A DNA stretch of 52,744 nucleotides from a virus (lineage: Duplodnaviria; Caudoviricetes), in the IMG/VR virus record IMGVR_UViG_3300037113_000050, positions 1 through 52,744 of that record; one strand, given 5' to 3'. Positions 1 through 52,744 of the stretch are shown here, one piece after another (the first letter of the stretch is position 1; each line of letters starts with the position of its first letter). Position numbers and translations under genes: made by a program. The notes below the pieces were generated by a model that worked only from the letters and a program-made list of their open reading frames with translations, searched no databases and was not told the origin of the DNA.

Positions 1-33
1 CCAACGCCGATTGTCTCCAGCAACTTGTTAGGC
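1..33 (-). repeat. Partial attC-like site (truncated by window start)
   Basis: ...tgtctccagcaacttGTTAGGC, same arm/box pattern as the other sites. Confidence 0.75.
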
Positions 34-314
34 GGCTTTACGAGGCTCGCCAATCCGCTGCCGCTGCCAAAAAAGTGATGCAGGAAGCCGCTGAAAAACT
101 TGGACGCTGCGAAGGCTGCCACGGCGGCGATGACGAAGCAAGCGGGACTCGCTGCTACCAATCTCGCGAATTGGCGAAAGAAAAGTGGTGCGACATCTGC
201 AAAACCAAACTGCCGCTCTGGGAGGACTATCGGCACAAATCAAACATGGCTGGGGCTTCACTTCGGATGGTCTTAAAACACGCGCAATCTCTGCCGTCTA
301 ACGTAGAAAGCTGA
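3..314 (+). CDS. Cassette ORF, Cys-containing hypothetical protein (5' end probably off-window)
   Basis: Frame is open from position 3 through the attC arm; ends PSNVES inside the next attC. Confidence 0.65.
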   Translation, partial: NADCLQQLVRRLYEARQSAAAAKKVMQEAAEKLGRCEGCHGGDDEASGTRCYQSRELAKEKWCDICKTKLPLWEDYRHKSNMAGASLRMVLKHAQSLPSNVES

Positions 315-423
315 GCCACGGGCATCGTGAGCCAGCATAACCAAAGAAAGAAAATACAATGACTGAATCAAACATCCAAAACGACAAGGCGCAATGCCCG
401 TTGGCTCCGGCGACTTGTTCGGC
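296..423 (-). repeat. attC-like site 1
   Basis: GTCTAAC...gctgagccacgggcat / atgcccgttggctccggc...GTTCGGC; arms pair with extrahelical bases. Confidence 0.88.
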
Positions 424-435
424 GAATCGAATTTT

Positions 436-717
436 ATGAAAACAGTCACAATACAAATCGGTAACTCGGACGATAAACTAACTCAAACCGAGTGGGCAGC
501 TTATGTGCTGATGATGCGGACAAACATCCTGCAACACTGCACCGCCGTCCAATTCTTCGGTGCTCCTGCAAACTGGGAGCGATGGCAAAACGTGGCGTGG
601 GTAGTCGTCTGCAAAGACGCCAAACTAGCCGCACTCAAAGCCGCAGTCACGGATGTGCGCTCAACTTTCAACCAAGACTCTGCCGCGTGGACAGAGGGTG
701 AGACTCAATTCGCCTAA
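436..717 (+). CDS. Cassette ORF, hypothetical protein
   Basis: ATG overlaps the leader stop (ATGA); TAA lies in the R box GCCTAAC. Confidence 0.75.
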   Translation: MKTVTIQIGNSDDKLTQTEWAAYVLMMRTNILQHCTAVQFFGAPANWERWQNVAWVVVCKDAKLAALKAAVTDVRSTFNQDSAAWTEGETQFA

Positions 718-993
718 CGAAAAAAGCTGAGCCACGGCCACTGTGACTCGGCGCAACCGAAGAAAAACTATGGCACAAGCAACATATCAAAAGCAGCGGG
801 TGATAGACGCCGCAACCAAAACGGCGACAAGCTATCGCGAGCAAATCATCGAACATTACCAGCGCGAAAAAGAGAGCAAAGAGAAACGAATCGTGGCCGC
901 GATGCAACCGCGCTGGTGGTGCGGCGCTTCGTGGTGCAACTGCGATGAGAAGCGGAAGGAACAGCGCTCATCGGCTCCGGCGATTTGTTCGGC
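712..993 (-). repeat. Chimeric attC-like site 2 (mismatched arms, ~220 bp coding insert)
   Basis: Left half 712-745 and right half ~963-993 pair only in the gagcc/ggctc core. Confidence 0.6.
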
Positions 994-1168
994 AGCACGG
1001 GCGCGAATAGACGATTCTGTGCGGCAAGTCTGGATGGCATACCGAGACGCATCCGACGTGAGTGTGGACATGCTGACTGAACAAGACATGGAACTGTGGG
1101 GCATCGTGACTCGTCACGTGGCCATACAGGACAGGCTAAACGCCATGCTGCCGAACGACCGGAGCTAA
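770..1168 (+). CDS. Fused cassette ORF, hypothetical
   Basis: Reads through the attC right arm (SAPAICSA); ends PNDRS in the next attC. Confidence 0.6.
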   Translation: MAQATYQKQRVIDAATKTATSYREQIIEHYQREKESKEKRIVAAMQPRWWCGASWCNCDEKRKEQRSSAPAICSAARARIDDSVRQVWMAYRDASDVSVDMLTEQDMELWGIVTRHVAIQDRLNAMLPNDRS

Positions 1169-1261
1169 GGCATCCCGGACTAATGACTTATGAATGACCA
1201 AGAATCTTTACGGCAAACTGAAGGCGTCCAACCGGGATTGCCTTCAGCGACCTTGTTGGGC
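1150..1261 (-). repeat. attC-like site 3 (near-identical to 3268-3379)
   Basis: GCCGAAC...gctaaggcatcccgg / ccgggattgccttcagc...GTTGGGC. Confidence 0.85.
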
Positions 1262-1287
1262 ATAGCGATTAACGACATACAAATAAA

Positions 1288-1506
1288 ATGATAACTGCAA
1301 CCGAATGGCTAACTAGCCCCAACATCGCTCGGCGAGCAACCGAACAAGATTGCGTCGAATGGATAAAACAAATCCAAGCCGATGCGCTCCGTCACGCCGC
1401 CGACATAGCCGAGTCTTACGACAACGAATCTCATCATGGTAATGACACCATGACCAAACAAAACATCGCGTCAGAAATACGCGCCGCCGCCCTGACATCT
1501 TCGTGA
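1288..1506 (+). CDS. Cassette ORF, hypothetical
   Basis: ATGA-coupled to leader 1190-1291. Confidence 0.7.
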   Translation: MITATEWLTSPNIARRATEQDCVEWIKQIQADALRHAADIAESYDNESHHGNDTMTKQNIASEIRAAALTSS

Positions 1507-1613
1507 TAATCTCCGCGCCAGAAAACGCGACCGATGCGGAACTGCAATCACTGGCAGAAATCGAGGCAATGCAGAAAACCTACCTGTGGTCAAAAAAACA
1601 AGTGCGGCCCAAC
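1490..1613 (+). pseudogene. 3' remnant of the cassette gene found intact at 3308-3598
   Basis: 124 bp match to 3418-3541 with about 9 mismatches counted by eye; out of frame with the upstream ORF. Confidence 0.8.
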
Positions 1614-1728
1614 ATAAAAGCTGAGCCGCCGCCTGTGAGCGGTGGTGAGGCGCAAAGGAAACATCCAAATGAGTAACGACATCCAAACGGACAGCAATAA
1701 GGCGGTTGCCTCCGGCGATTGGTTAGAG
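1607..1728 (-). repeat. attC-like site 4
   Basis: GCCCAAC...gctgagccgccgcct / aggcggttgcctccggc...GTTAGAG. Confidence 0.8.
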
Positions 1729-1974
1729 CCAGCCGTCAAATCCATGAAGAACAGATTAAGTGATACAATCTTTTGTAGTGACATGGCTAAAATACCGAAT
1801 GCGCCGGACTGCTGTGCGTCCTGTCACGAGGACTGGAATGAAGGATATGACAACCCTGAATGGCGGGAACCGGATAAAACCATTCCGCACAAATACTGCC
1901 TATGCTGTGCGATGCGCTTATTTGCAGAAACGCAGGCTGGCTCTAACATAAAAGCTGACGCAAGCCGCACCTGA
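1669..1974 (+). CDS. Cassette ORF, Cys-rich (possible Zn-binding) protein starting inside attC
   Basis: CCASCH and YCLCC motifs; start codon in the attC loop. Confidence 0.7.
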   Translation: MSNDIQTDSNKAVASGDWLEPAVKSMKNRLSDTIFCSDMAKIPNAPDCCASCHEDWNEGYDNPEWREPDKTIPHKYCLCCAMRLFAETQAGSNIKADASRT

Positions 1975-2049
1975 CGCATGAAACAACCACAAAACCGAAG
2001 CGAACAACTCGCAGCGCCAACCGTCATTGGCTCCGGCGACTTGATAGGC
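1941..2049 (-). repeat. attC-like site 5 (degenerate, GAT in place of GTT)
   Basis: CTCTAAC...cattggctccggcgacttGATAGGC; arms pair poorly. Confidence 0.7.
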
Positions 2050-2084
2050 CACGGCTGATAATCTGGACACACTAAACGACAAAT

Positions 2085-2294
2085 ATGAAAACAAACAAAC
2101 AAACGAAATCGGTCAAACCAATCCCGAAACCAAACTTTGTCAATAAATGCGAAGGCTGGTCTTTCGACTATGGCTTCGTCAGCGACATCGCCGAAGAATG
2201 CCGAAAGCTCGACGAGGACTTTGCGCCAAGCATGGAAGGCGTGGACGATGTGCTGAAAGTGCTTAAAAAACGCGGTCATATCGTAGTGGCCTAA
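2085..2294 (+). CDS. Cassette ORF, hypothetical
   Basis: Stop TAA lies in the R box. Confidence 0.7.
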   Translation: MKTNKQTKSVKPIPKPNFVNKCEGWSFDYGFVSDIAEECRKLDEDFAPSMEGVDDVLKVLKKRGHIVVA

Positions 2295-2388
2295 CATCCG
2301 AAGCTGAGCCATGACGCCACAAGAGACATCCAACCGCGAAGCGGAACTGACCGCGCCACCGCGCATTGGCTCCAGCGCCTTGTTCGGC
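2289..2388 (-). repeat. attC-like site 6
   Basis: GCCTAAC...gctgagccatg / cattggctccagc...GTTCGGC. Confidence 0.88.
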
Positions 2389-2395
2389 GGATAAT

Positions 2396-2608
2396 ATGAC
2401 AACTCAAAATACATGGCCAAACGGAGTCCGTCACGCGATGCACCAAAGCGACCACGAATCGTGGAACGCTCGAAACTATCCCGGCACAAGGCAACTCTGC
2501 TCAAAATGCGGCGAACCGACCGAACGATGCGAGGAAGATGCCATCTGGAACGATGACGGCGAACCTCTTTGTTCATCGTGCGCATATCCGCCTAACGACC
2601 GCGCATGA
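2396..2608 (+). CDS. Cassette ORF, CxxC...CxxC zinc-finger-like protein
   Basis: CSKC and CSSC motifs. Confidence 0.7.
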   Translation: MTTQNTWPNGVRHAMHQSDHESWNARNYPGTRQLCSKCGEPTERCEEDAIWNDDGEPLCSSCAYPPNDRA

Positions 2609-2688
2609 GCCACGGCGCGAATAACGACGTGAACCGCGAAGCGGAACTGACAGCGCCCACGCGCATTGGCTCCGGCGACTTGTTAGGC
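2590..2688 (-). repeat. attC-like site 7
   Basis: GCCTAAC...gagcca / tggctc...GTTAGGC; loop shares aaccgcgaagcggaactgac with site 6. Confidence 0.88.
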
Positions 2689-2715
2689 AGCAAAACGTGA
2701 ACTGACATAAAATCT

Positions 2716-3045
2716 ATGAAAGCAAAAGTCTCAAGTCTGTATCGGAACGGCAGAAACCTTCCGACAAACAAAGTATCCGGCACTGCCGAAGGCGACCTAA
2801 ACCTAGCCGTGAGCAAGCATCCTGTGACTGGACGTTGCACGCATGAAGCCTGCGTGCTGAATGATGACGGTCACTCACTTCTACCAGACCTGTATGATGT
2901 GACGTGCGTATCAATCTCCGCCGCCGGATTCCGGCTGCGCGGAATAGAAATAAAATCTGGTCGTGAGGTCTCACAAGAATGGTGGTGTATGCCAATGCTG
3001 CCTAACGTGGAGGTCAGCCACCGCCGGGCTGACGTAACCAAATGA
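2716..3045 (+). CDS. Cassette ORF, hypothetical phage-type protein
   Basis: Clean ORF between attC sites, stop inside the next attC. Confidence 0.75.
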   Translation: MKAKVSSLYRNGRNLPTNKVSGTAEGDLNLAVSKHPVTGRCTHEACVLNDDGHSLLPDLYDVTCVSISAAGFRLRGIEIKSGREVSQEWWCMPMLPNVEVSHRRADVTK

Positions 3046-3089
3046 AACTGACGCGGCCAACGGCGGTTGGCTGCACCGATTTGTTAGGC
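3000..3089 (-). repeat. attC-like site 8
   Basis: GCCTAAC...ggtcagccaccgccg / cggcggttggctgcacc...GTTAGGC. Confidence 0.88.
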
Positions 3090-3094
3090 GATAT

Positions 3095-3286
3095 ATGACA
3101 TACGAATCATGGGAAGATGAAATAGAACGTAGCGGCTGGTCTTTTGGACTCAGCACGCAAAAACAAATGCTGGCTGACTGGCGAACCGACCGCGCCGAGT
3201 GGCGTGCCGCTCTAAAAGAATCACGGCAAGAAATCGCCCGCCTGAAAGAAAGCTCGAAACCAATATCGCCTAACGCCGGGAGCTAA
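3095..3286 (+). CDS. Cassette ORF, hypothetical
   Basis: ATGA-coupled to leader 3042-3098. Confidence 0.7.
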   Translation: MTYESWEDEIERSGWSFGLSTQKQMLADWRTDRAEWRAALKESRQEIARLKESSKPISPNAGS

Positions 3287-3379
3287 GGCATCCCGGACTA
3301 ATGACTTATGAATGACCAAGAATCTTTACGGAAAACTGAAGGCGTCCAACCGGGATTGCCTTCAGCGACCTTGTTGGGC
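3268..3379 (-). repeat. attC-like site 9
   Basis: Near-identical copy of site 3. Confidence 0.85.
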
Positions 3380-3598
3380 CGCACGGTCGAATGGGAAATC
3401 GTCCTGAGCGGCGGACACCCTGACATCTTTGTGATAATCTCCGCGCCAGAAAACGCGACCGATGCGGAACTGCAATCACTAGCAGAAATCGAGGCAATGG
3501 CAAAAACCTACATCTGGTCGAAAAAACGAGTGCGGCCCAACGACGCGCTATGCCATCCCGCATCTGCGGTGCGGCATTCCACGGGCGCTACCGATTAA
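3308..3598 (+). CDS. Cassette ORF starting inside attC, hypothetical
   Basis: N-terminal 24 aa encoded by the attC; the paralogous fragment differs largely by synonymous or conservative changes. Confidence 0.75.
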   Translation: MNDQESLRKTEGVQPGLPSATLLGRTVEWEIVLSGGHPDIFVIISAPENATDAELQSLAEIEAMAKTYIWSKKRVRPNDALCHPASAVRHSTGATD

Positions 3599-3641
3599 AC
3601 GGACGCGGCCAATAGGGATTGGCATCAGCAACTTGTTAGAT
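3535..3641 (-). repeat. attC-like site 10
   Basis: GCCCAAC...gctatgccatccc / gggattggcatcagc...GTTAGAT. Confidence 0.85.
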
Positions 3642-3670
3642 GCCGAATCAACGACAACCAAATAAAAAAT

Positions 3671-3871
3671 ATGGGACAAGCCAAAAGACGCGGAACATAC
3701 GAGCAACGCCGCCAAGCGGCAATCGCACGAACAATGCCGACATCATCGCCTGAAACGATGAACGCGGCATATAAACAGCCACGCCGCCCCATGCGACGCG
3801 GGAACATGATAATGGCTGCCGCGATGCTGAGAGCAATGGCGTGGTCGGTGCCGCCCCGCCGAGGCATCTAA
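3671..3871 (+). CDS. Cassette ORF, small basic protein (MGQAKRRG N-terminus)
   Basis: Stop in the R box ATCTAAC. Confidence 0.65.
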   Translation: MGQAKRRGTYEQRRQAAIARTMPTSSPETMNAAYKQPRRPMRRGNMIMAAAMLRAMAWSVPPRRGI

Positions 3872-3958
3872 CGCTCAAGCTGAGCCAAGCCGCCAATGAA
3901 AACTCAAGAAAAACAGATGGACGCACGCGGCGGCTTTGGCTCCGGCGACTTGTTAGGC
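3866..3958 (-). repeat. attC-like site 11
   Basis: ATCTAAC...gctgagccaagccgcc / ggcggctttggctccggc...GTTAGGC. Confidence 0.88.
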
Positions 3959-3981
3959 ATAGCGATTAACGACATACGAAT

Positions 3982-4173
3982 ATGACATTCAAAAGATTCA
4001 GCAAACTTTGGGATACCTTTGTGACCAATCGGCCAAAGGCATCAAATCAAACTCCGCTTGCGGAACATAAGATGAACGAAGCGACATCAACCGCGCTCAT
4101 AGAATACGCGAACGGCGACAAATCAAAAATCAACGCAGTCCGCAAAAAGCTAAACCGCCGCCGCGATGCCTAA
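3982..4173 (+). CDS. Last cassette ORF, hypothetical
   Basis: ATGA-coupled to leader 3896-3985; stop in the lone R box GCCTAAC 4168-4174. Confidence 0.7.
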   Translation: MTFKRFSKLWDTFVTNRPKASNQTPLAEHKMNEATSTALIEYANGDKSKINAVRKKLNRRRDA

Positions 4174-4190
4174 CAACAGAATATGAGTCT

Positions 4191-4454
4191 ATGGCATCAT
4201 TCTTTAAACATCGTAACCAACGGCAGGACAAGCGGAAACGACAATTAGAAAAGTTGAAGCGCTGGCGAGAAGCAAAGGCGCGAAAGCATCAAGAAGCCAT
4301 TTCCGCCGGTTGGTTGCCTGAGCCACGTTTTATCCGGTCGTATCTCTACGAATACGGTATCCGCAATGTCGTCACCGGAGAAACCCATTGGCGAACACTG
4401 ACCAGCGCAAGGCAGGCGTCAAAGGCGTTGGGTCTGATAATGAAATTCATTTAA
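4191..4454 (+). CDS. Hypothetical basic protein
   Basis: ORF converging on the late operon. Confidence 0.6.
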   Translation: MASFFKHRNQRQDKRKRQLEKLKRWREAKARKHQEAISAGWLPEPRFIRSYLYEYGIRNVVTGETHWRTLTSARQASKALGLIMKFI

Positions 4455-5065
4455 TGCGGGATTGACGCTGGAGCCAGCACACCATTTTGCACCTGCCATC
4501 CAGCCTGATACTGTTTACACAGTTCTTGCATCGGCAGCAAATCCGCAGGCGTGTGCGCGTTCCATATCGGGCCACCGGCAATTTTCACAGTCGCCCATGC
4601 GGCGTTGCGCTGGAACCAGTTCGCGCCTAGGTCTTGCAGGTCTTGCAACAGTTGCCAGTCAGTTTCCGCTTTAGACTTGAGCTGGCAGCAATACCCCTTG
4701 TCGTGCCGTATCCATGCGGCGGAATATTGGCCTATCTTCGGTAGGAACGCATCCAACCAATCGCCACCATCGCTATCCGTCATACCGCTGCGGTAGTCCG
4801 TCGTCCAGACCGGCAGATTCATCATGTCGTCAAGTGTTCCAGCACTAGACGGGGGGATGATTTCAAACGTGCCGTCTGGATTCAGAGCGGCGAACGGCAA
4901 CGTGATGATCCAGTCGTCCGGCGCTGTTTGCAGCGTGTCTGGATACGCCATTGTCGCCGACGTATAGACGAATTTCTGGCACGGATTCCCGGCAACCAGC
5001 CGCTGTCCCTTTATGGCAACAGTGGCTTTCGCCATTCGTTTATCGGCTGATTGCCGGAAGTTCAT
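4451..5065 (-). CDS. DUF1353-like protein (true start may be 4951)
   Basis: TDSDGG...YSAAWIRHDKGY...ETDWQLLQDL pattern typical of phage DUF1353. Confidence 0.6.
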   Translation of the reverse strand: MNFRQSADKRMAKATVAIKGQRLVAGNPCQKFVYTSATMAYPDTLQTAPDDWIITLPFAALNPDGTFEIIPPSSAGTLDDMMNLPVWTTDYRSGMTDSDGGDWLDAFLPKIGQYSAAWIRHDKGYCCQLKSKAETDWQLLQDLQDLGANWFQRNAAWATVKIAGGPIWNAHTPADLLPMQELCKQYQAGWQVQNGVLAPASIPH

Positions 5066-9294: not shown

Positions 9295-9627
9295 TTAAAC
9301 CAGCATTATCCAGACACCATTTGAAACTGCCCAAAGCGTGCTATCCGAGTCGTTGATGTAAAGTGAAGGTGGAGCAACTGCCAGGCTATTTGATACCGGC
9401 GTGCCAGTGCCGTGCTGCACGCTGCCACCACTGCCACCGCCGGAGCCAGACGCCAGCAGGTAGATAATCACACCCAGCTTGTCCTGAATGCACTGGAAGC
9501 AGCTTGCGGCGGTTTGAAGTTGTTGGGCAGTCATAGAGCCTGTGTTGAGTAGGTAGATGATTGCCGCCAGCTTGTCCTGTATTGTGGAAAAGCTGACGGC
9601 ACCATTTTGAGTTTGTTGCGCGGTCAT
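9295..9627 (-). CDS. Putative virion structural protein
   Basis: Internal repeat IQDKLxxIIYLL; follows the capsid cluster. Confidence 0.55.
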   Translation of the reverse strand: MTAQQTQNGAVSFSTIQDKLAAIIYLLNTGSMTAQQLQTAASCFQCIQDKLGVIIYLLASGSGGGSGGSVQHGTGTPVSNSLAVAPPSLYINDSDSTLWAVSNGVWIMLV

Positions 9628-10712
9628 TGCGGATAAGCCGCGTGTCTGCCTAGCTTGACGAGCAACAGCAGAAACGCCTGGGCCAGTTGACGGTCATTCA
9701 TCTGGTTTAAACCGGCAGTCCGAACCGCAATCACATTGACATCAGTCGGCAGGGAAGCTCCGTTGGCATTCGCATTTTCGTAGGCGGAGTTCAATGTGGC
9801 TTGGCCGGCGTAAGTTCCAACCGTGCCGACGCCAAGCTGTTCATCGGAGTAATTGTTGAAGATCACCGCGTCGGTGTTAAGTGTGTTTCGCAGCACATTG
9901 CCGTCCGCTGCGAGGTAATTTGTTCCGCCGATGGCCTTGAGTTCCGCCGCCATAAAATAGACGAGGAAGGCCATCTTTTGGTGCCCACTCAAGCATTGCG
10001 CAGCGCAAAACGTGGTGGTGCTGGTGCCAACACCAACCAAACTTGGCGCAACTCCAACCAAGGGCGGTGGAGTGACAGTCACCAAGACTGGCATGGTGAC
10101 GGTATTCGTATCGAGTGTGACGGCACCATTGCTGGCCAGCAAGCGGCCAGTGACCGTTGCGCTGGTCGTCGCGGTGATTGAGGTCAGCGCCAGAACGGTG
10201 CCCAACAGATTCGAGGATGCTCCCAGCGTGGCGGAGGTGCCGACCTGCCAGAACACATTCGCGGCCTGCGCGCCGTTGATGAGAACAACATTGCTCGCCG
10301 CGGCGGTGATGAGCGTAGATGCCATCTGGAAGATGAACACCGCGTTAGCGTCCCCCTGGCCGTCCAGCGTCAGCGTTCCGGTGATACCGAACGTGCCGTT
10401 GGCAGATGTATAGACCCCCGGCGTCTTGGTCGTACTTCCAAGCTCGGTTGGAACGGTGGATGCACCCGTCGCGGCTGCCGCAAACAGGTAAGCCGCCGTC
10501 AAATCCAGTTTGGCCTGCTGCGTTGTAGCGTCTCCGGCGTGGTTGACGCCGTAAAGGACGGCGTTGCCTATGCCAGTGATGGTCGTGGTCGGGAACGTCC
10601 CGATGCTGCCGGTGATCGCGGTTGAATTGGCTGCTCCGGCAAAGGTAATGCCGCTGCCGCCAAGCAGGGCAAACAGACCGGACGATAAAAGTGGTACCGT
10701 GGTTTCGTACAT
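9624..10712 (-). CDS. DUF3494 ice-binding-like domain fused to an unknown C-terminal domain
   Basis: TPGVY, GTLTLDGQGDANAVFIFQ, LINGAQAANVFWQVGTSATLG and GRLLA motifs. Confidence 0.9.
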   Translation of the reverse strand: MYETTVPLLSSGLFALLGGSGITFAGAANSTAITGSIGTFPTTTITGIGNAVLYGVNHAGDATTQQAKLDLTAAYLFAAAATGASTVPTELGSTTKTPGVYTSANGTFGITGTLTLDGQGDANAVFIFQMASTLITAAASNVVLINGAQAANVFWQVGTSATLGASSNLLGTVLALTSITATTSATVTGRLLASNGAVTLDTNTVTMPVLVTVTPPPLVGVAPSLVGVGTSTTTFCAAQCLSGHQKMAFLVYFMAAELKAIGGTNYLAADGNVLRNTLNTDAVIFNNYSDEQLGVGTVGTYAGQATLNSAYENANANGASLPTDVNVIAVRTAGLNQMNDRQLAQAFLLLLVKLGRHAAYPQ

Positions 10713-36373: not shown

Positions 36374-37252
36374 TCATGTAAGGCTCAACGGGATGATGGC
36401 GAGACTGGCGGAATCGACCGTAATGCTTCCCGCAGCAGTCACCGCAGTGGTTAAAATTTGCAATGCAAGGATGTCGTTGAGCGCAAGACTTGAAACGAAA
36501 AACGGAAGCACGATGTCAATCGTGGGCACGGTTGCAGTCGTCAGAATACCAGACGCCCGATACGTCACCGCCAGAGTCCCAACCGTGTTGTTCGTTCGTT
36601 GAACCTGAACCGTGATGACTTTGGAATTGGCATAGGTTACTCCAGTGAAGTTCAAGGAACATCTTGCCATGACAAGATACAGCCCGGCAGCGGGAGCCGT
36701 CAGCGTCATTCCAGTGATGGTCGTCGCCACTGAAAGGTAAGCGCCAGTTCCCGCCAGCGACAAGCCGATGGCTTCCAGATTTACGACGGTTCCATTTTGA
36801 CCTAGACCAAGCGCTGCTAGCGCACCTGACTTTGTGGAAACTCCGGTACCACCTTGAGAAATCCCAATCGGAAACGTAAGCGGTGGTTGAGTTCCAGCCG
36901 GTGAAACCTGTGCCCCGGAAACGATGGTATTTCCGGTCTGATTGTTCCCCGTGTAGTTAAGGTAAGTCAGGATCGCCTGCGTGTTTCCAGTTTTGGACTT
37001 GACGGAGAAGTATCCAGCATAGGCAATGTAAACATTCTGGCCGACGATCATCCACTGGTTGTTGTCGAATGTGAGATTGACGGTGTCAGCAGCCTGCGCG
37101 GGAACGGTGAAGTTTGCCGTAGTGAGAATCGAAAATGAGTTTGCTCCGTTGGTTCCAGATGATCCCGCCGACCCCGCCGCGCCGGGCAGTCCCGGAATTG
37201 CAACAATTTCCGGCGACGGACAACCGCAGTTTCTTGAAAGGGTGTTTGCCAT
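36374..37252 (-). CDS. Putative tail fibre/structural protein
   Basis: Short Gly-X-Y stretch and ISQGGTG...ALAALGL motif. Confidence 0.55.
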   Translation of the reverse strand: MANTLSRNCGCPSPEIVAIPGLPGAAGSAGSSGTNGANSFSILTTANFTVPAQAADTVNLTFDNNQWMIVGQNVYIAYAGYFSVKSKTGNTQAILTYLNYTGNNQTGNTIVSGAQVSPAGTQPPLTFPIGISQGGTGVSTKSGALAALGLGQNGTVVNLEAIGLSLAGTGAYLSVATTITGMTLTAPAAGLYLVMARCSLNFTGVTYANSKVITVQVQRTNNTVGTLAVTYRASGILTTATVPTIDIVLPFFVSSLALNDILALQILTTAVTAAGSITVDSASLAIIPLSLT

Positions 37253-37305
37253 ACCCGTTATATTTCTACTGGATTTGGCTCAATGTCAACTCTATATTGC
37301 CCTTT

Positions 37306-39090
37306 ATGGCAGCTACTTTTTCAAAATACGGCTACGAATGGCCCGCCGGAACCGACCCCCTGGCCATCGAATTTCAGATGATCCGATTGCCGGATGGAAA
37401 AATCAAGACACCCCACTACCTCGCCGCGCACAAACTGCTCTGGCCGGAGGATGAACAGCACCGCTGGTTCGTGTTGGGACTGAAAACCATCGTCGAGAAC
37501 AAGGTTACTGTCCTGCTTGGCTGCGCCTCTTCAGGGAAAACCTACATCATGGCAATCCACGCCCTGATTGATTTCTTCTGCTTCCCAGAAACGTCACTCG
37601 CCCTCGTGTCGTCAACCGACATTCGTTCCCTTGAATTGAAGGTGTGGGGTCGGTTTAAAACCCTGTTCAACCGGGCGCGCCGGAATTATCCATGGCTGCC
37701 CGGCTACGCGCTGGATTCAAAAATGACCATCACGCCCGATGACATTGACGGGGATAACCAAGTCGCACGAGAGCTAAATCGCGGCGTGGTGTGTGTTCCC
37801 TGTGTCAGCGGTGGCCGCTTCATCGGCATGGGCAAGTTTCAAGGGGCCAAGCCTCCGCACTCACCCGGCAAGGCAGACGGCCTGCTCAAGCACTACGGCG
37901 ACGAGGCGGCGGTCATGCAATCCAGTTTCCTTGACGCCTACACCAATTGGACGGTGTCGCCGGGATTCAAGGGGGTCATGTGCGGAAACCCGACGGATAT
38001 TTCGGATCCGCTCTGTGTCGCGGCGGAGCCGGTCGGCGGCTGGGATGAGTTCATTGACACCGGCAAGACACAGGAATGGATTTCGCAATGGTACAAGGCG
38101 CATGTGGTCGCATTTGATGGCCGGGATACCCCGAACAATGATGATCCAAAAAAGATCTATCCCTACCTCGTGTCCGCTGACTGGGTGGAGTCCATGAAAC
38201 AGACACACGGCGAAGACTCGTGGCAGTTTTTCCAGCAGGCCATCGGCAAGCCATCGCGTGGCATGGTCAGCAACCGAGTCATCACCATCGGCCTGTGCGA
38301 GCGCAACCTGGCATTTGAAGACCCAATCTGGCGTGATTCCACCTTTACCGACATCTACGCCCTTGACCCGGCATACGCCGGCGGTGACCGTTGCGTCGGT
38401 GGTAAAATCCGCATCGGCACCTCGATTGACGGCAAGCAGATCGTTGAAGTCGGAATCCCCGAAACCCTCCCCATCCGGCTAAATGTCGGTCTGGAACCGG
38501 AAGAGCAAATCGCACGACTGGTCTTTGACCGGATGAAAGCCGATGGCATTCCTGCCGAGAATGGCTTCTACGATTCGTTTGGACGCGGCACCCTTGGCTT
38601 CGCCTTTGCCAAACTCTTCGGCGCGTCCTGCCCGGTGCCGGTGGACTCCGGCGCGCGCCCCACATCCCGGCCAGTCCGGTTTGATCTGTTCGTGGATGAT
38701 GGCCATGGCGGGAAACGTCTCAAGCGCTGCGATGAACACTACTCCAAGTTCGTTACTGAAATGTGGTTTTCCACCCGCGAAGCCATCGAGTCAGGCCAAA
38801 TCCGCAGCCTGCCTCGCACCGTCGCCAATGAAGGCCAGTTGCGAATGTTTGAAATCGTTTCCGGCAACCGCGTTGAGGTTGAAACCAAGGACGACATGAA
38901 GCAGCGCATCCGCAAGTCCCCCGACCTTTACGACTGGTTCGCCATCGCCATCGAAGGCGCACGCCAGCGCGGTTTCAAAATCCAACGCATCGGTGCCGCC
39001 ATCGAAGCCAAGCGCAAACCCGACTGGCTCGACGGCCACTTCAAAGAACTTGCCGAACTGGGCAAATCCAGACAGTTGCAGAACGGTTAG
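37306..39090 (+). CDS. terL: Terminase large subunit
   Basis: Walker A GCASSGKT, Walker B-like YGDEAA, CGNP, nuclease LDPAYAGGD and KSPDLYD. Confidence 0.88.
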   Translation: MAATFSKYGYEWPAGTDPLAIEFQMIRLPDGKIKTPHYLAAHKLLWPEDEQHRWFVLGLKTIVENKVTVLLGCASSGKTYIMAIHALIDFFCFPETSLALVSSTDIRSLELKVWGRFKTLFNRARRNYPWLPGYALDSKMTITPDDIDGDNQVARELNRGVVCVPCVSGGRFIGMGKFQGAKPPHSPGKADGLLKHYGDEAAVMQSSFLDAYTNWTVSPGFKGVMCGNPTDISDPLCVAAEPVGGWDEFIDTGKTQEWISQWYKAHVVAFDGRDTPNNDDPKKIYPYLVSADWVESMKQTHGEDSWQFFQQAIGKPSRGMVSNRVITIGLCERNLAFEDPIWRDSTFTDIYALDPAYAGGDRCVGGKIRIGTSIDGKQIVEVGIPETLPIRLNVGLEPEEQIARLVFDRMKADGIPAENGFYDSFGRGTLGFAFAKLFGASCPVPVDSGARPTSRPVRFDLFVDDGHGGKRLKRCDEHYSKFVTEMWFSTREAIESGQIRSLPRTVANEGQLRMFEIVSGNRVEVETKDDMKQRIRKSPDLYDWFAIAIEGARQRGFKIQRIGAAIEAKRKPDWLDGHFKELAELGKSRQLQNG

Positions 39091-43929: not shown

Positions 43930-44862
43930 TCATTTTACGTTCGAGGCGGCGCTGTCGGCGTCTTGCCTCAAGTCTGCGTTAGGGGTCCTTGCCATCATCC
44001 CAATCAGAGCGGCGGCGACTTGCGGCACGATGGCGTTGCCGAGTCCTTTAAGTCTGTCCACCCGGTTGGGTAGCCCATTAACCACTCGACAAATTGCGGG
44101 TTCAGGCTCCCACCGATTTCCGCATTGAGCGGTTTCGTGTTCCTCACCATTTGCGACGGGGCGCCGTTGTTCTTCGCGTCCTGCGCCGTTGGCGTCGGCC
44201 ACATTTTCACGGCGAGAGTCAGCGGCGGCGTTGAGACTTTCCCCGCGTCCCGGCGCCGCGTCCACGATTCTTCCGTTTCGTCCGTCGTCTTGCCCGCTCG
44301 CGGCGTGGGCCACAATCCATACTCGGTTTCTTCGGTGTCTGGCATCTGTGGCGCAAGCTGGAATAGCAACCGGCCACGCGGAGTAGCCGAGACTTTCCAA
44401 GTCAGCAAGCACACGGTCGAGTTCCATTGTGATGATTCCAGGCACATTTTCACCAAGCACCCAGCGGGGTTTGGCCTCATCAATAACGCGGAGCATTTCA
44501 GGCCAGAGCGCACGGTCATCTTCCGCGCCTCTGCGCTTCCCGGCGAGACTGAATGGCTGGCAAGGAAATCCGCCTGTGAGTAGCCAAGTTCCATTGAAGG
44601 GTTTTCCGTCAAATTTGCAGATATCATCATAGATTGGAATGTCCGCGAAGTTTTTCCGCAGGACTTTTTGAGCGTAGGCGTCTTTCTCCACGAAGGCCAC
44701 GGTTTGCACTTCATTCATTCGCGCAGCCAGGGCGAAGCCGCCGATGCCACTGAAAAGGTCTAGGTGGGTTCGACGGACACCTAACAAGCGCACGGAGCCA
44801 ACGCCTATTGGCGTCGTCAGTCCGCTATCGCGGGCGGGAGTCGTTGGTGCGGCGTGGCTCAT
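43930..44862 (-). CDS. C5-cytosine DNA methyltransferase, alpha polypeptide (motifs I-VIII and X)
   Basis: LDLFSGIGG, GGFPCQPFS, ENV, HRRNRVWIV and LGNAIVPQ; start ATG lies in an attC arm. Confidence 0.9.
   Translation of the reverse strand: MSHAAPTTPARDSGLTTPIGVGSVRLLGVRRTHLDLFSGIGGFALAARMNEVQTVAFVEKDAYAQKVLRKNFADIPIYDDICKFDGKPFNGTWLLTGGFPCQPFSLAGKRRGAEDDRALWPEMLRVIDEAKPRWVLGENVPGIITMELDRVLADLESLGYSAWPVAIPACATDARHRRNRVWIVAHAASGQDDGRNGRIVDAAPGRGESLNAAADSRRENVADANGAGREEQRRPVANGEEHETAQCGNRWEPEPAICRVVNGLPNRVDRLKGLGNAIVPQVAAALIGMMARTPNADLRQDADSAASNVK
43950..43984 (+). repeat. Half attC-like site at the 3' end of the MTase
   Basis: cttgcctcaagtctgcGTTAGGG; partner arm not found. Confidence 0.55.
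44004..44714 (-). CDS. Overlapping-frame MTase beta polypeptide (TRD/motif IX-like); start uncertain
   Basis: WPTP repeats and LNPQFVEWLMGYPTGWT, entirely inside the alpha gene. Confidence 0.75.
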   Translation of the reverse strand: MKCKPWPSWRKTPTLKKSCGKTSRTFQSMMISANLTENPSMELGYSQADFLASHSVSPGSAEARKMTVRSGLKCSALLMRPNPAGCLVKMCLESSQWNSTVCLLTWKVSATPRGRLLFQLAPQMPDTEETEYGLWPTPRAGKTTDETEESWTRRRDAGKVSTPPLTLAVKMWPTPTAQDAKNNGAPSQMVRNTKPLNAEIGGSLNPQFVEWLMGYPTGWTDLKDSATPSCRKSPPL

Positions 44863-44877
44863 GCGCGGTCGTTCGGC
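44779..44877 (+). repeat. Complete attC-like site in the replication operon
   Basis: ACCTAAC...ggagccaacgcc / ggcgtggctc...GTTCGGC; shares aacgaccgcgcatgagccacg (minus strand) with site 7. Confidence 0.88.
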
Positions 44878-52260: not shown

Positions 52261-52288
52261 TTGACTTTGCTGCGAACGGTAGTAGTAT
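52261..52288 (+). promoter_or_regulatory. Sigma70-like promoter for the Cro-like gene and cassette array
   Basis: TTGACT-16bp-TAGTAT, with the ATG 6 nt downstream (leaderless-type). Confidence 0.55.
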
Positions 52289-52294
52289 CAAGGA

Positions 52295-52471
52295 ATGAAG
52301 AAAAAAACCATCGCCGACGTGCTACAAAGGTGGCGTAAGAAAAATGGCTACTCCCAACAAAAGGCGGCGTCCCTTCTGGAATGTTCCATTGCCACGATTC
52401 AGTCCTGGGAACAGGAACGGAACGAGCCGCTGCCGCAAACCGCTGATTTTATCCGGGAGAAATGCAAATGA
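52295..52471 (+). CDS. XRE/Cro-like HTH regulator (58 aa, absent from the ORF track)
   Basis: MKKKTIADVLQRWRKKNGYSQQKAASLLECSIATIQSWEQERNEP. Confidence 0.85.
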   Translation: MKKKTIADVLQRWRKKNGYSQQKAASLLECSIATIQSWEQERNEPLPQTADFIREKCK

Positions 52472-52731
52472 AACCATGCCCGTTGGCTCCGGCGACTTGT
52501 TCGGCGATTCCTGCGAGTCATCTGGACTTCTGCCGTGAAGTCGGAAGGCTCGCAAAAGAGCATAGACTAAACCGAGTTACGATCACTTTCCAGCCGGGGT
52601 TCCGCGATGAGTGGAGGGACCAAATAAGCGCGACGTGGGAGAGTGGCCGACACGAAGAGGAAGTGGGTATAATCCACGTCGAAAGCACCGTGCGCGTTCA
52701 CACGAGTATTTCGCCGAACGTAGAAAGCTGA
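52468..52731 (+). CDS. First cassette ORF, hypothetical
   Basis: ATGA-coupled to the Cro-like gene; N-terminus encoded by the half attC; ends PNVES. Confidence 0.7.
   Translation: MKPCPLAPATCSAIPASHLDFCREVGRLAKEHRLNRVTITFQPGFRDEWRDQISATWESGRHEEEVGIIHVESTVRVHTSISPNVES
52476..52505 (-). repeat. Half attC-like site fused to the Cro-like gene end
   Basis: 52476-52507 identical to 394-425. Confidence 0.8.
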
Positions 52732-52744
52732 ACCGCCGCCGACC
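52713..52744 (-). repeat. Partial attC-like site (truncated by window end)
   Basis: GCCGAACgtagaaagctgaaccgccgcc. Confidence 0.75.

Follow-up and report, generated by a model that had tools for sequence, protein, structure and literature searches.

Start codons inside attC sites of a phage-borne cassette array whose genes lie on the attC bottom strand

Integron cassettes usually consist of a promoterless gene followed by an attC site and are expressed from the integron promoter, and the attC hairpins hinder translation. How ribosomes could reach the genes of an array in which each attC stands before its gene is the question raised by a phage sequence, the IMG/VR virus record IMGVR_UViG_3300037113_000050 (Duplodnaviria; Caudoviricetes). 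We analysed the entire record (52,744 bp, linear, 94% complete by estimate), hereafter called the window, in which an attC array without an integrase spans 52.3 kb to 4.2 kb, across the record ends. An initial annotation, made from the letters alone, had proposed that the attC sites double as translated leaders that relay ribosomes to the next gene via ATGA overlaps of stop and start codons. Taken as a whole, this interpretation was partly supported.

Identity, orientation and edges of the attC cassettes

The 11 full-length copies in the window, which range in length from 90 to 128 nucleotides (nt), have a left arm (GCCTAAC, a spacer and AAGCTGAGCC), a variable loop, and a right arm (GGCTCCGGCGACTTGTTAGGC). 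An unpaired spacer of ~9 nt lies on either side between the core and the inner inverted repeat (the L boxes), and the core box pairs are kept in all 11 sites at four columns. The core boxes of attC sites are described as an inverted 7-bp pair, RYYYAAC ... GTTRRRY (PMC9892861). The consensus fold contained 16 predicted pairs, with compensatory changes in 6 of them, and the 3' arm carried a bulged T. At least 120 stretches of bacterial genomes matched a degenerate right-arm pattern, many as dense arrays, and most of these stretches were labelled as Verrucomicrobiae, Limisphaerales, Pedosphaera or Opitutaceae. IntI was present in all four genomes tested (399–413 bits, compared with a TIGR02249 cut-off of 265). 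In bacteria, a covariance model trained on the 11 copies of the window detected 269 sites (22 loci), which scored up to 103 bits, as high as the training copies; it detected 109 sites in 20 viral loci as well. The window repeats belong to the attC sites of an integron family that adjoins IntI genes in Verrucomicrobiae, which bears out their initial naming as attC, and the phage host is probably a member of Verrucomicrobiae. We note that dense arrays of the same attC family are also contained in bins labelled Bifidobacteriaceae (L026, L034, L072, L088, L103, L107 and others), a label that looks like a binning artefact.

The genes of the array lie on the attC bottom strand. By the convention set out in PMC13323075, an array has its cassette genes and its attC top strands directed away from intI. 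The array was located 5' of intI in each of seven intI-array pairs, with the motif of the phage plus strand on the intI strand. This is the regular geometry, and it is therefore the attC bottom strand that is present in the phage mRNA. The longest open frame of the intervals between sites was on the motif strand in 61 bacterial intervals and on the opposite strand in 266, compared with 23 and 8 in viral intervals and 6 and 2 in the window. A Pfam search of 10 long frames from bacterial arrays returned no families, the coding strand being called there from open-frame length alone. The bulged T on the 3' arm also agrees with the bottom-strand orientation. The inverted layout assumed by the initial annotation was upheld by the intI geometry, the strand counts and the bulge.

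IntI recombines attC sites at the AA|C of their bottom strand. The edges of the cassettes were placed in the left boxes by several observations. In I2, I4, I5, I7, I9, I10 and I15, the box at which a gene begins, plus 5–7 further bases, was complementary to the one at which it ends, and a duplicated block (1156-1612 and 3274-3541) had both of its edges at left boxes. Of two population joints, one leads from 3001 to 3868 and skips 866 nt (one DNA run and one RNA run), and the other from 709 to 3266 and skips 2556 nt (two DNA runs, with short flanks of ~20 nt); both lie inside left boxes and are resolved only to 6–10 nt. No right-box to right-box joint was present among the 15 joints listed from contigs of public peat and permafrost runs. 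With its edges in left boxes, each cassette consists of an attC plus a gene, so that an ATG inside the attC moves with the gene behind it. In population variants, the box that ends at 4173 is followed by one more attC, attC-like sequence being joined to positions 4175 and 4176, and the same array recurs in many peat and permafrost samples with cassette-level differences. Two other tests of the partnership between attC and gene were discarded. Shared loops, for which 58/64 matches ended exactly at both boxes, were uninformative because loops are conserved within the attC family and the matches stop at the boxes for that reason. The 879-nt block common to L015 and L019 holds an attC, a gene and another attC, and is undiscriminating.

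Start codons within the sites

To the 11 full-length window sites (of 17 model matches) we compared a viral set of 99 sites from 19 loci, i.e., the 109 model matches less four incomplete ones and the six of L018, which duplicates L005, and a bacterial set of 378 two-armed sites of the same attC family, drawn from 471 right-arm matches. Left arms were detected without demanding complementary boxes, a demand that loses most of the window sites. The right box was crossed by an ATG-led frame in 10/11 window sites and 80/99 viral sites, compared with 89/378 bacterial sites (Fisher p about 1e-25). Such a crossing frame needs only an ATG, since two of the three right-arm frames are open in bacteria as well. 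When the 61 sense triplets heading crossing frames were ranked, ATG came first in the window, 4th in the viral set and 34th in the bacterial set, and the number of ATGs per attC interior was 1.55, 1.46 and 0.60, respectively. Triplets with the composition of ATG (GAT, AGT, GTA) were alike in the viral and bacterial sets. The median fraction of sites with a crossing ATG was 0.79 per contig in viruses (12 contigs) and 0.20 in bacteria (40 loci; p 3e-6). Among sites of the 99-nt type, whose bacterial consensus has no ATG, a crossing ATG was found in 6/10 viral copies (including the window) and in 15/217 bacterial ones; the phage copies of this type gained their ATGs at three positions. The attC-internal ATGs of the phage sites are not due to chance. 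Together with the left-box edges, their enrichment over the bacterial copies agrees with the earlier idea that each cassette carries an ATG of its own inside its attC.

The first crossing ATG was located at a median of 36 nt 3' of the left box and 55 nt 5' of the right arm, in a region slightly more unpaired than the remainder of the site (0.56 vs 0.48, p 8e-4), and was followed by an A in 89/123 cases. The 99 viral sites comprised 64 in-frame starts, 12 short leaders with a nearby gene, four leaders without a gene, and 19 sites with neither. Long open reading frames (ORFs) starting in frame from the attC were present at 63/98 viral sites and 40/368 bacterial sites, and at 10/367 on the bacterial coding strand itself. 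The attC ATG of related phages thus appears to be mostly the start of the cassette gene itself. In L005, which comes from a complete phage (with terminal repeats), each of the eight genes begins inside an attC and runs into the following one, the stop and the start being adjacent within the attC loop. Across the viral sites, the stop of the upstream gene and the attC ATG formed ATGA in 20/99, overlapped otherwise in 13 and lay at most 10 nt apart in another 13, i.e., they overlapped or were within 10 nt in 46/73 cases.

A start inside an attC is required for one gene of the window. A solitary cassette on the minus strand (43930-44877) consists of an attC (44877-44779) and a C5 DNA methyltransferase gene (ATG 44862, stop 43930). 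In the ORF that opens at ATG 44862, homology to M.HhaI begins at residue 26, which is encoded by the right box, and no start codon is present between the right box and the FxGxG motif (motif I). Translation of the methyltransferase must therefore begin inside the attC. This cassette lies singly within the replication module, a long way from the array. Its edges are GCCGAA|C upstream and a left-box-like CCCTAAC near 43976-43982, and it looks like an off-array cassette insertion.

Short leaders and the passage of ribosomes

The 11 sites of the window comprised four in-frame starts and six short leaders, three of which end in ATGA and three of which leave gaps of 1, 15 and 26 nt. Short leaders were a minority form outside the window (12/99 viral sites). 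All stop and start coordinates given by the initial annotation for its leader/gene pairs and in-frame fusions were reproduced from the sequence; the ORF from 52468 ends at 52731 and not 52722. Three further short ORFs, at 1978-2058, 2311-2394 and 2605-2700, were added to its list.

The junctions, all on the plus strand, are as follows. The attC J1 (296-423) contains the ORF 359-439, with ATGA at 436. The gene 436-717 shares its frame with ATG 394 of J1, and J1 can alternatively be taken as a fusion via that ATG, with 359-439 being a short leader only if 436 is the true gene start. J2 (712-993) is atypical in that its left arm (712-733) is 240 nt away from its right arm (973-993); the two do not pair mutually and gave weak model matches only; ORF 770-1168 crosses its right arm, and in other samples the left arm has an ordinary loop behind it. 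J3 (1150-1261), a duplicate of J9 (3268-3379; 96% identical), has the leader 1190-1291 with ATGA at 1288, and ATG 3308 of J9 opens the ORF 3308-3598 (96 aa). At J4 (1607-1728), ATG 1669 opens the ORF 1669-1974 (101 aa). The leader of J5 (1941-2049), at 1978-2058, stops 26 nt 5' of ATG 2085; that of J6 (2289-2388), at 2311-2394, stops 1 nt 5' of ATG 2396; and that of J7 (2590-2688, the 99-nt host consensus type), at 2605-2700, stops 15 nt 5' of ATG 2716. From its residue 11 on, the product of the gene 2716-3045 matches phrog_5560 (E 4e-9), so that the gene's own start is real. ATG 2605 of J7 lies in the L box and, as noted initially, overlaps the TGA of the gene 2396-2608; likewise, ATG 3042 of J8 (3000-3089) overlaps the TGA of the gene 2716-3045. 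The leader of J8 (3042-3098) has ATGA at either end (3042 and 3095), and the leader of J11 (3866-3958), at 3896-3985, has ATGA at 3982. An RNA-library contig spans 2996-3146, and with it J8, with zero differences. The last left box, GCCTAAC at 4167-4173, has no attC behind it and forms the right end of the array.

Directly 3' of the right box, at 1262-1287 on the plus strand, lies a conserved A-rich 5' leader module that consists of ATAGCGATTAACGACATAC, an A-rich run and ATG, with a second copy at 3959-3981. Nine copies were found in the window and in L015, L017, L021, L022, L103 and L107, and the start is ATGA in 8/9. The module may be a portable ribosome-loading leader. L103 and L107, which carry this phage-type module, are among the bins labelled Bifidobacteriaceae. 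J3 and J9 are one and the same attC, in which the same ATG opens the 96-aa ORF in J9 and a shortened leader in J3. This comparison indicates that leaders can arise where the body of a cassette gives way to a gene that brings its own 5' region.

We consider it reasonably probable that the locus is an integron-type cassette array with bottom-strand genes, attC-internal starts, and leaders that hand on ribosomes. The array would be an integrase-less cassette array, i.e., a cluster of attC sites lacking an integrase (CALIN), in an early operon of the phage, with attC sites of the integron type of its host, and the cassette order of attC then gene would put a hairpin before each gene in the mRNA. 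Within the variable loop, it is the 5' part in which start codons would have evolved, typically ~36 nt past the left box. Ribosomes would initiate at the attC ATG, often just after terminating on the upstream gene whose stop shares that attC, and would then cross the 3' arm and open the hairpin. The crossing frame would be the cassette gene in most related phages, the attC arm encoding ~25 N-terminal residues. At six or seven junctions of the window, an ORF of 18–33 codons would end at, or close to, the start codon of a gene that has a 5' leader of its own, and would most likely pass ribosomes on by termination-reinitiation. The sequence shows the anatomy, the orientation, the enrichment of ATGs and the need of the methyltransferase for a start inside its attC; we infer that the short ORFs are translated and that their translation raises downstream expression.

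Several observations weigh against this explanation. The detection of sites differed between the sets (covariance model for viral sites, pattern search for bacterial ones); with a single detector for both, a crossing ATG-led frame was found in 27/37 viral and 89/378 bacterial sites, in what is a smaller comparison. A crossing ATG was missing in 19/99 viral sites and at J10 (3535-3641, plus strand), the sole window site without an ATG-led frame over its right arm. Right-arm frames a and c were each open in 92% of bacterial sites. Three Opitutaceae loci (L060, L067 and L096) have crossing ATGs in 37/43 attCs with their genes on the other strand; the bottom strand of this attC subfamily carries an ATG-led open frame that is conserved. 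Shine-Dalgarno-like motifs were present at 3/13 attC-internal ATGs. As for the leaders, two in the window end short of the gene start, by 15 and 26 nt, and the ATGA cases at 1288 and 3982 have the same leader module and are therefore not independent. An ATGA from leader to gene was found in only 3/99 other viral sites, compared with 64 in-frame gene starts, and the relay put forward in the initial annotation does not hold as a general rule; in the count of ATGA overlaps over similar arrays, ATGA was more frequent at the preceding step, from upstream stop to attC ATG (20/99). Finally, RNA-library contigs cover parts of the array, but they are strandless and DNA carry-over is possible.

It is also conceivable, though in our estimate unlikely, that the in-frame attC starts are real and that the short leaders of the window are relics that give a pointless peptide or none. 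J3 would fit such a history, as the J9 attC in which the frame from the ATG was cut short once the leader module and the gene 1288-1506 had been inserted. The A-rich leader module could recruit ribosomes alone, and the minority status of short leaders in other phages points in the same direction. Relics would be less expected to stay open over both the arm and the 5' leader, or to place their stop so that it overlaps the gene start or lies at most 1 nt from it, as it does in 4/6 cases. Three leaders also begin at the upstream stop or at most 3 nt from it, and four-base overlaps are the commonest join of real neighbouring genes in this phage.

Transcript stretches that are not translated are subject to Rho-dependent termination. 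Translation of the attC might accordingly shield the early transcript, where untranslated structured gaps of 100 nt invite Rho termination or RNase cleavage, with no handing on of ribosomes. The ORFs do tile the array nearly gaplessly (gaps mostly 26 nt or less), and the variable right-arm frame of the viral sites (a 37, c 34, b 20) would suggest that it is translation as such that counts, rather than the peptide. We regard this explanation as improbable, given that it accounts for the stop-start overlaps less well than coupling does.

That the ATGs and overlaps came about by chance, from an A-rich loop beside an arm open in two frames, is highly improbable: the open bacterial frames a and c and the 89/378 bacterial crossing ATGs would be in its favour, but ATG was enriched 2.4-fold in viral sites while triplets of the same composition were not, and the per-contig medians, the long in-frame ORFs and the 99-nt type given above all separate the two sets. 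Nor do we give much credence to the short peptides being functional small proteins, since the roughly G-S-G-D-L-L-G reading shared by all ten window frames across the arm is set by the DNA motif, other phages use all three frames, and the only array protein with a family match (phrog_5560) belongs to a downstream gene.

The array in its phage and among known systems

The window encodes a terminase large subunit (37135-39090; phrog_2, E 5e-11) and further phage and replication proteins, namely an exonuclease VIII-like protein, a primosomal protein, a DnaB helicase and the C5 DNA methyltransferase. A PF00589 profile search of the whole record for a tyrosine recombinase gave no match at E up to 1, and the array is accordingly an attC cluster without an integrase and not a complete integron. 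IntI was above the cut-off in none of the 16 viral records searched, three of which are complete with terminal repeats. We note an IntI-like gene of 263.6 bits (cut-off 265) at L152 (G012:C1:28474-29355), in a viral record that is 49% complete; either a phage carries this integrase or the record is a bacterial fragment that was misclassified. As a tentative proposal, for which we would claim less than an even chance, phages of Verrucomicrobiae may store variable early genes as antisense integron cassettes and borrow the host IntI during infection to gain, lose and reorder them. Under this same proposal, a single hairpin would act both as a recombination site in DNA and as a translation start region in mRNA, with no integrase of the phage's own, and the stored genes would possibly be counter-defence genes such as the methyltransferase.

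On the plus strand, a promoter-like site before the array (TTGACT, 16 nt, TAGTAT; 52261-52288) matches by consensus only and is opposed by a divergent promoter-like site. From it, small plus-strand genes continue past the record end into 1-4454. The first gene of the operon (52295-52471, 58 aa) ends in a TGA that overlaps ATG 52468, and the ORF 52468-52731 reads through a half attC with a right arm only (52476-52505; the model gave 19.1 bits for 52396-52512). Both record ends fall inside attC, as judged by the covariance model: a left arm at 52713-52734 is cut by the record end (match 52707-52744, model positions 1-38) and a right arm at 1-33 by the record start (match 1-40, model positions 83-122). 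The assembly probably broke inside an attC repeat, and the array may be longer than the record shows. Within 1-4700, promoter-like sites were at chance level (4 vs 3.2 expected) and no plus-strand terminator-like site was found.

Shine-Dalgarno-like motifs were scarce in this phage (10/32 long genes and 0/10 array genes). In many long minus-strand genes, AATTTT or TAATTT stands immediately 5' of the ATG without a Shine-Dalgarno-like motif (e.g., starts 9275, 12410, 17908, 20703, 31337, 32329 and 51373), which may be an initiation context of the phage or its host.

Several elements of this arrangement have counterparts in known systems. Stem-loops of attC block ribosomes (reviewed in PMC8876359), and in class 1 integrons the hairpin block is relieved through termination-reinitiation at a short ORF within attC (Jacquier et al. 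2009, as cited in PMC8876359). Like this class 1 ORF, the small ORFs in the window start in the attC, cross its stem and are proposed to bring ribosomes to the next cassette. In the class 1 case, however, the mRNA is the top strand and the attC is that of the upstream cassette, whereas in the phage it is the bottom strand and the attC moves with the downstream gene; moreover, the phage sites, unlike the class 1 case as reviewed, mostly have an ATG, which is usually the start of the gene itself. Translation of the first cassette is coupled to ORF-11, ORF-17 and ORF-18 of attI1 (PMC8876359). These ORFs resemble the phage leaders in that a leader peptide runs over a recombination site and is coupled to a gene without its own ribosome-binding region, and their stop can come from the next cassette. 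The attI1 ORFs differ in lying in attI, having a canonical Shine-Dalgarno sequence and serving the first cassette only, whereas in the phage there is one per attC, mostly without a Shine-Dalgarno sequence. Qi et al. 2023 reported 17 attC clusters without IntI in virulent phages, with at least 2 sites each and with methyltransferase cassettes included (PMC9892861). The present array shares the integrase-less phage attCs and the methyltransferase cassette with these clusters and goes beyond that account, as presented there, in that each phage has 11 or more sites, the sites belong to a defined attC family of the host and starts lie inside them; translation and bottom-strand coding are not taken up in the abstract or section 3.4 of that paper. 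The PeSL elements of T4-type phages are promoter-terminator stem-loop repeats linked to homologous recombination (PMC2839356, PMC4122927). They too are repeated stem-loops that flank small accessory genes in hyperplastic regions and are tied to gene shuffling; unlike them, the window repeats are integron attC sites, with promoter-like sites at chance level and without plus-strand terminator-like sites.

The relay principle, i.e., termination-reinitiation from an ORF in attC, is already known. What appears to be new is the polarity, the systematic evolution of starts inside attC and the occurrence in early operons of phages. No description of bottom-strand-coded phage cassettes with attC-internal starts was found in the literature, judged by titles and abstracts, with subscription journals and supplements outside the scope. 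A phage-borne cassette set of reversed polarity would turn an obstacle to translation into the place where it starts. If this is true, attC sequence would be doubly constrained, by recombination structure and by coding; annotation pipelines that set starts after the attC would mis-call such genes; and integrons would be a gene-exchange platform for phages as well as hosts in peat and permafrost habitat.

Comparisons of the encoded proteins returned few relatives. In a Pfam and PHROGs search of 14 array proteins, 13 remained without a name, phrog_5560 being the sole match. A tblastn search of 16 array proteins of the window against all fetched loci gave relatives for 4191-4454 only (49% identity to a relative in L005/L018), plus a short attC-encoded stretch. 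The viral record G020 was compared as a possible DNA relative of the window, with a negative result. A 253-aa open frame at 1824-2585 on the minus strand extends across two attCs and is probably spurious, because that strand is A-poor there (AT skew 0.28) and has few stops. Lastly, the protein encoded at 9624-10712 on the minus strand has a strong Ice_binding-like domain (E 2e-53), in a phage known from peat and permafrost runs.

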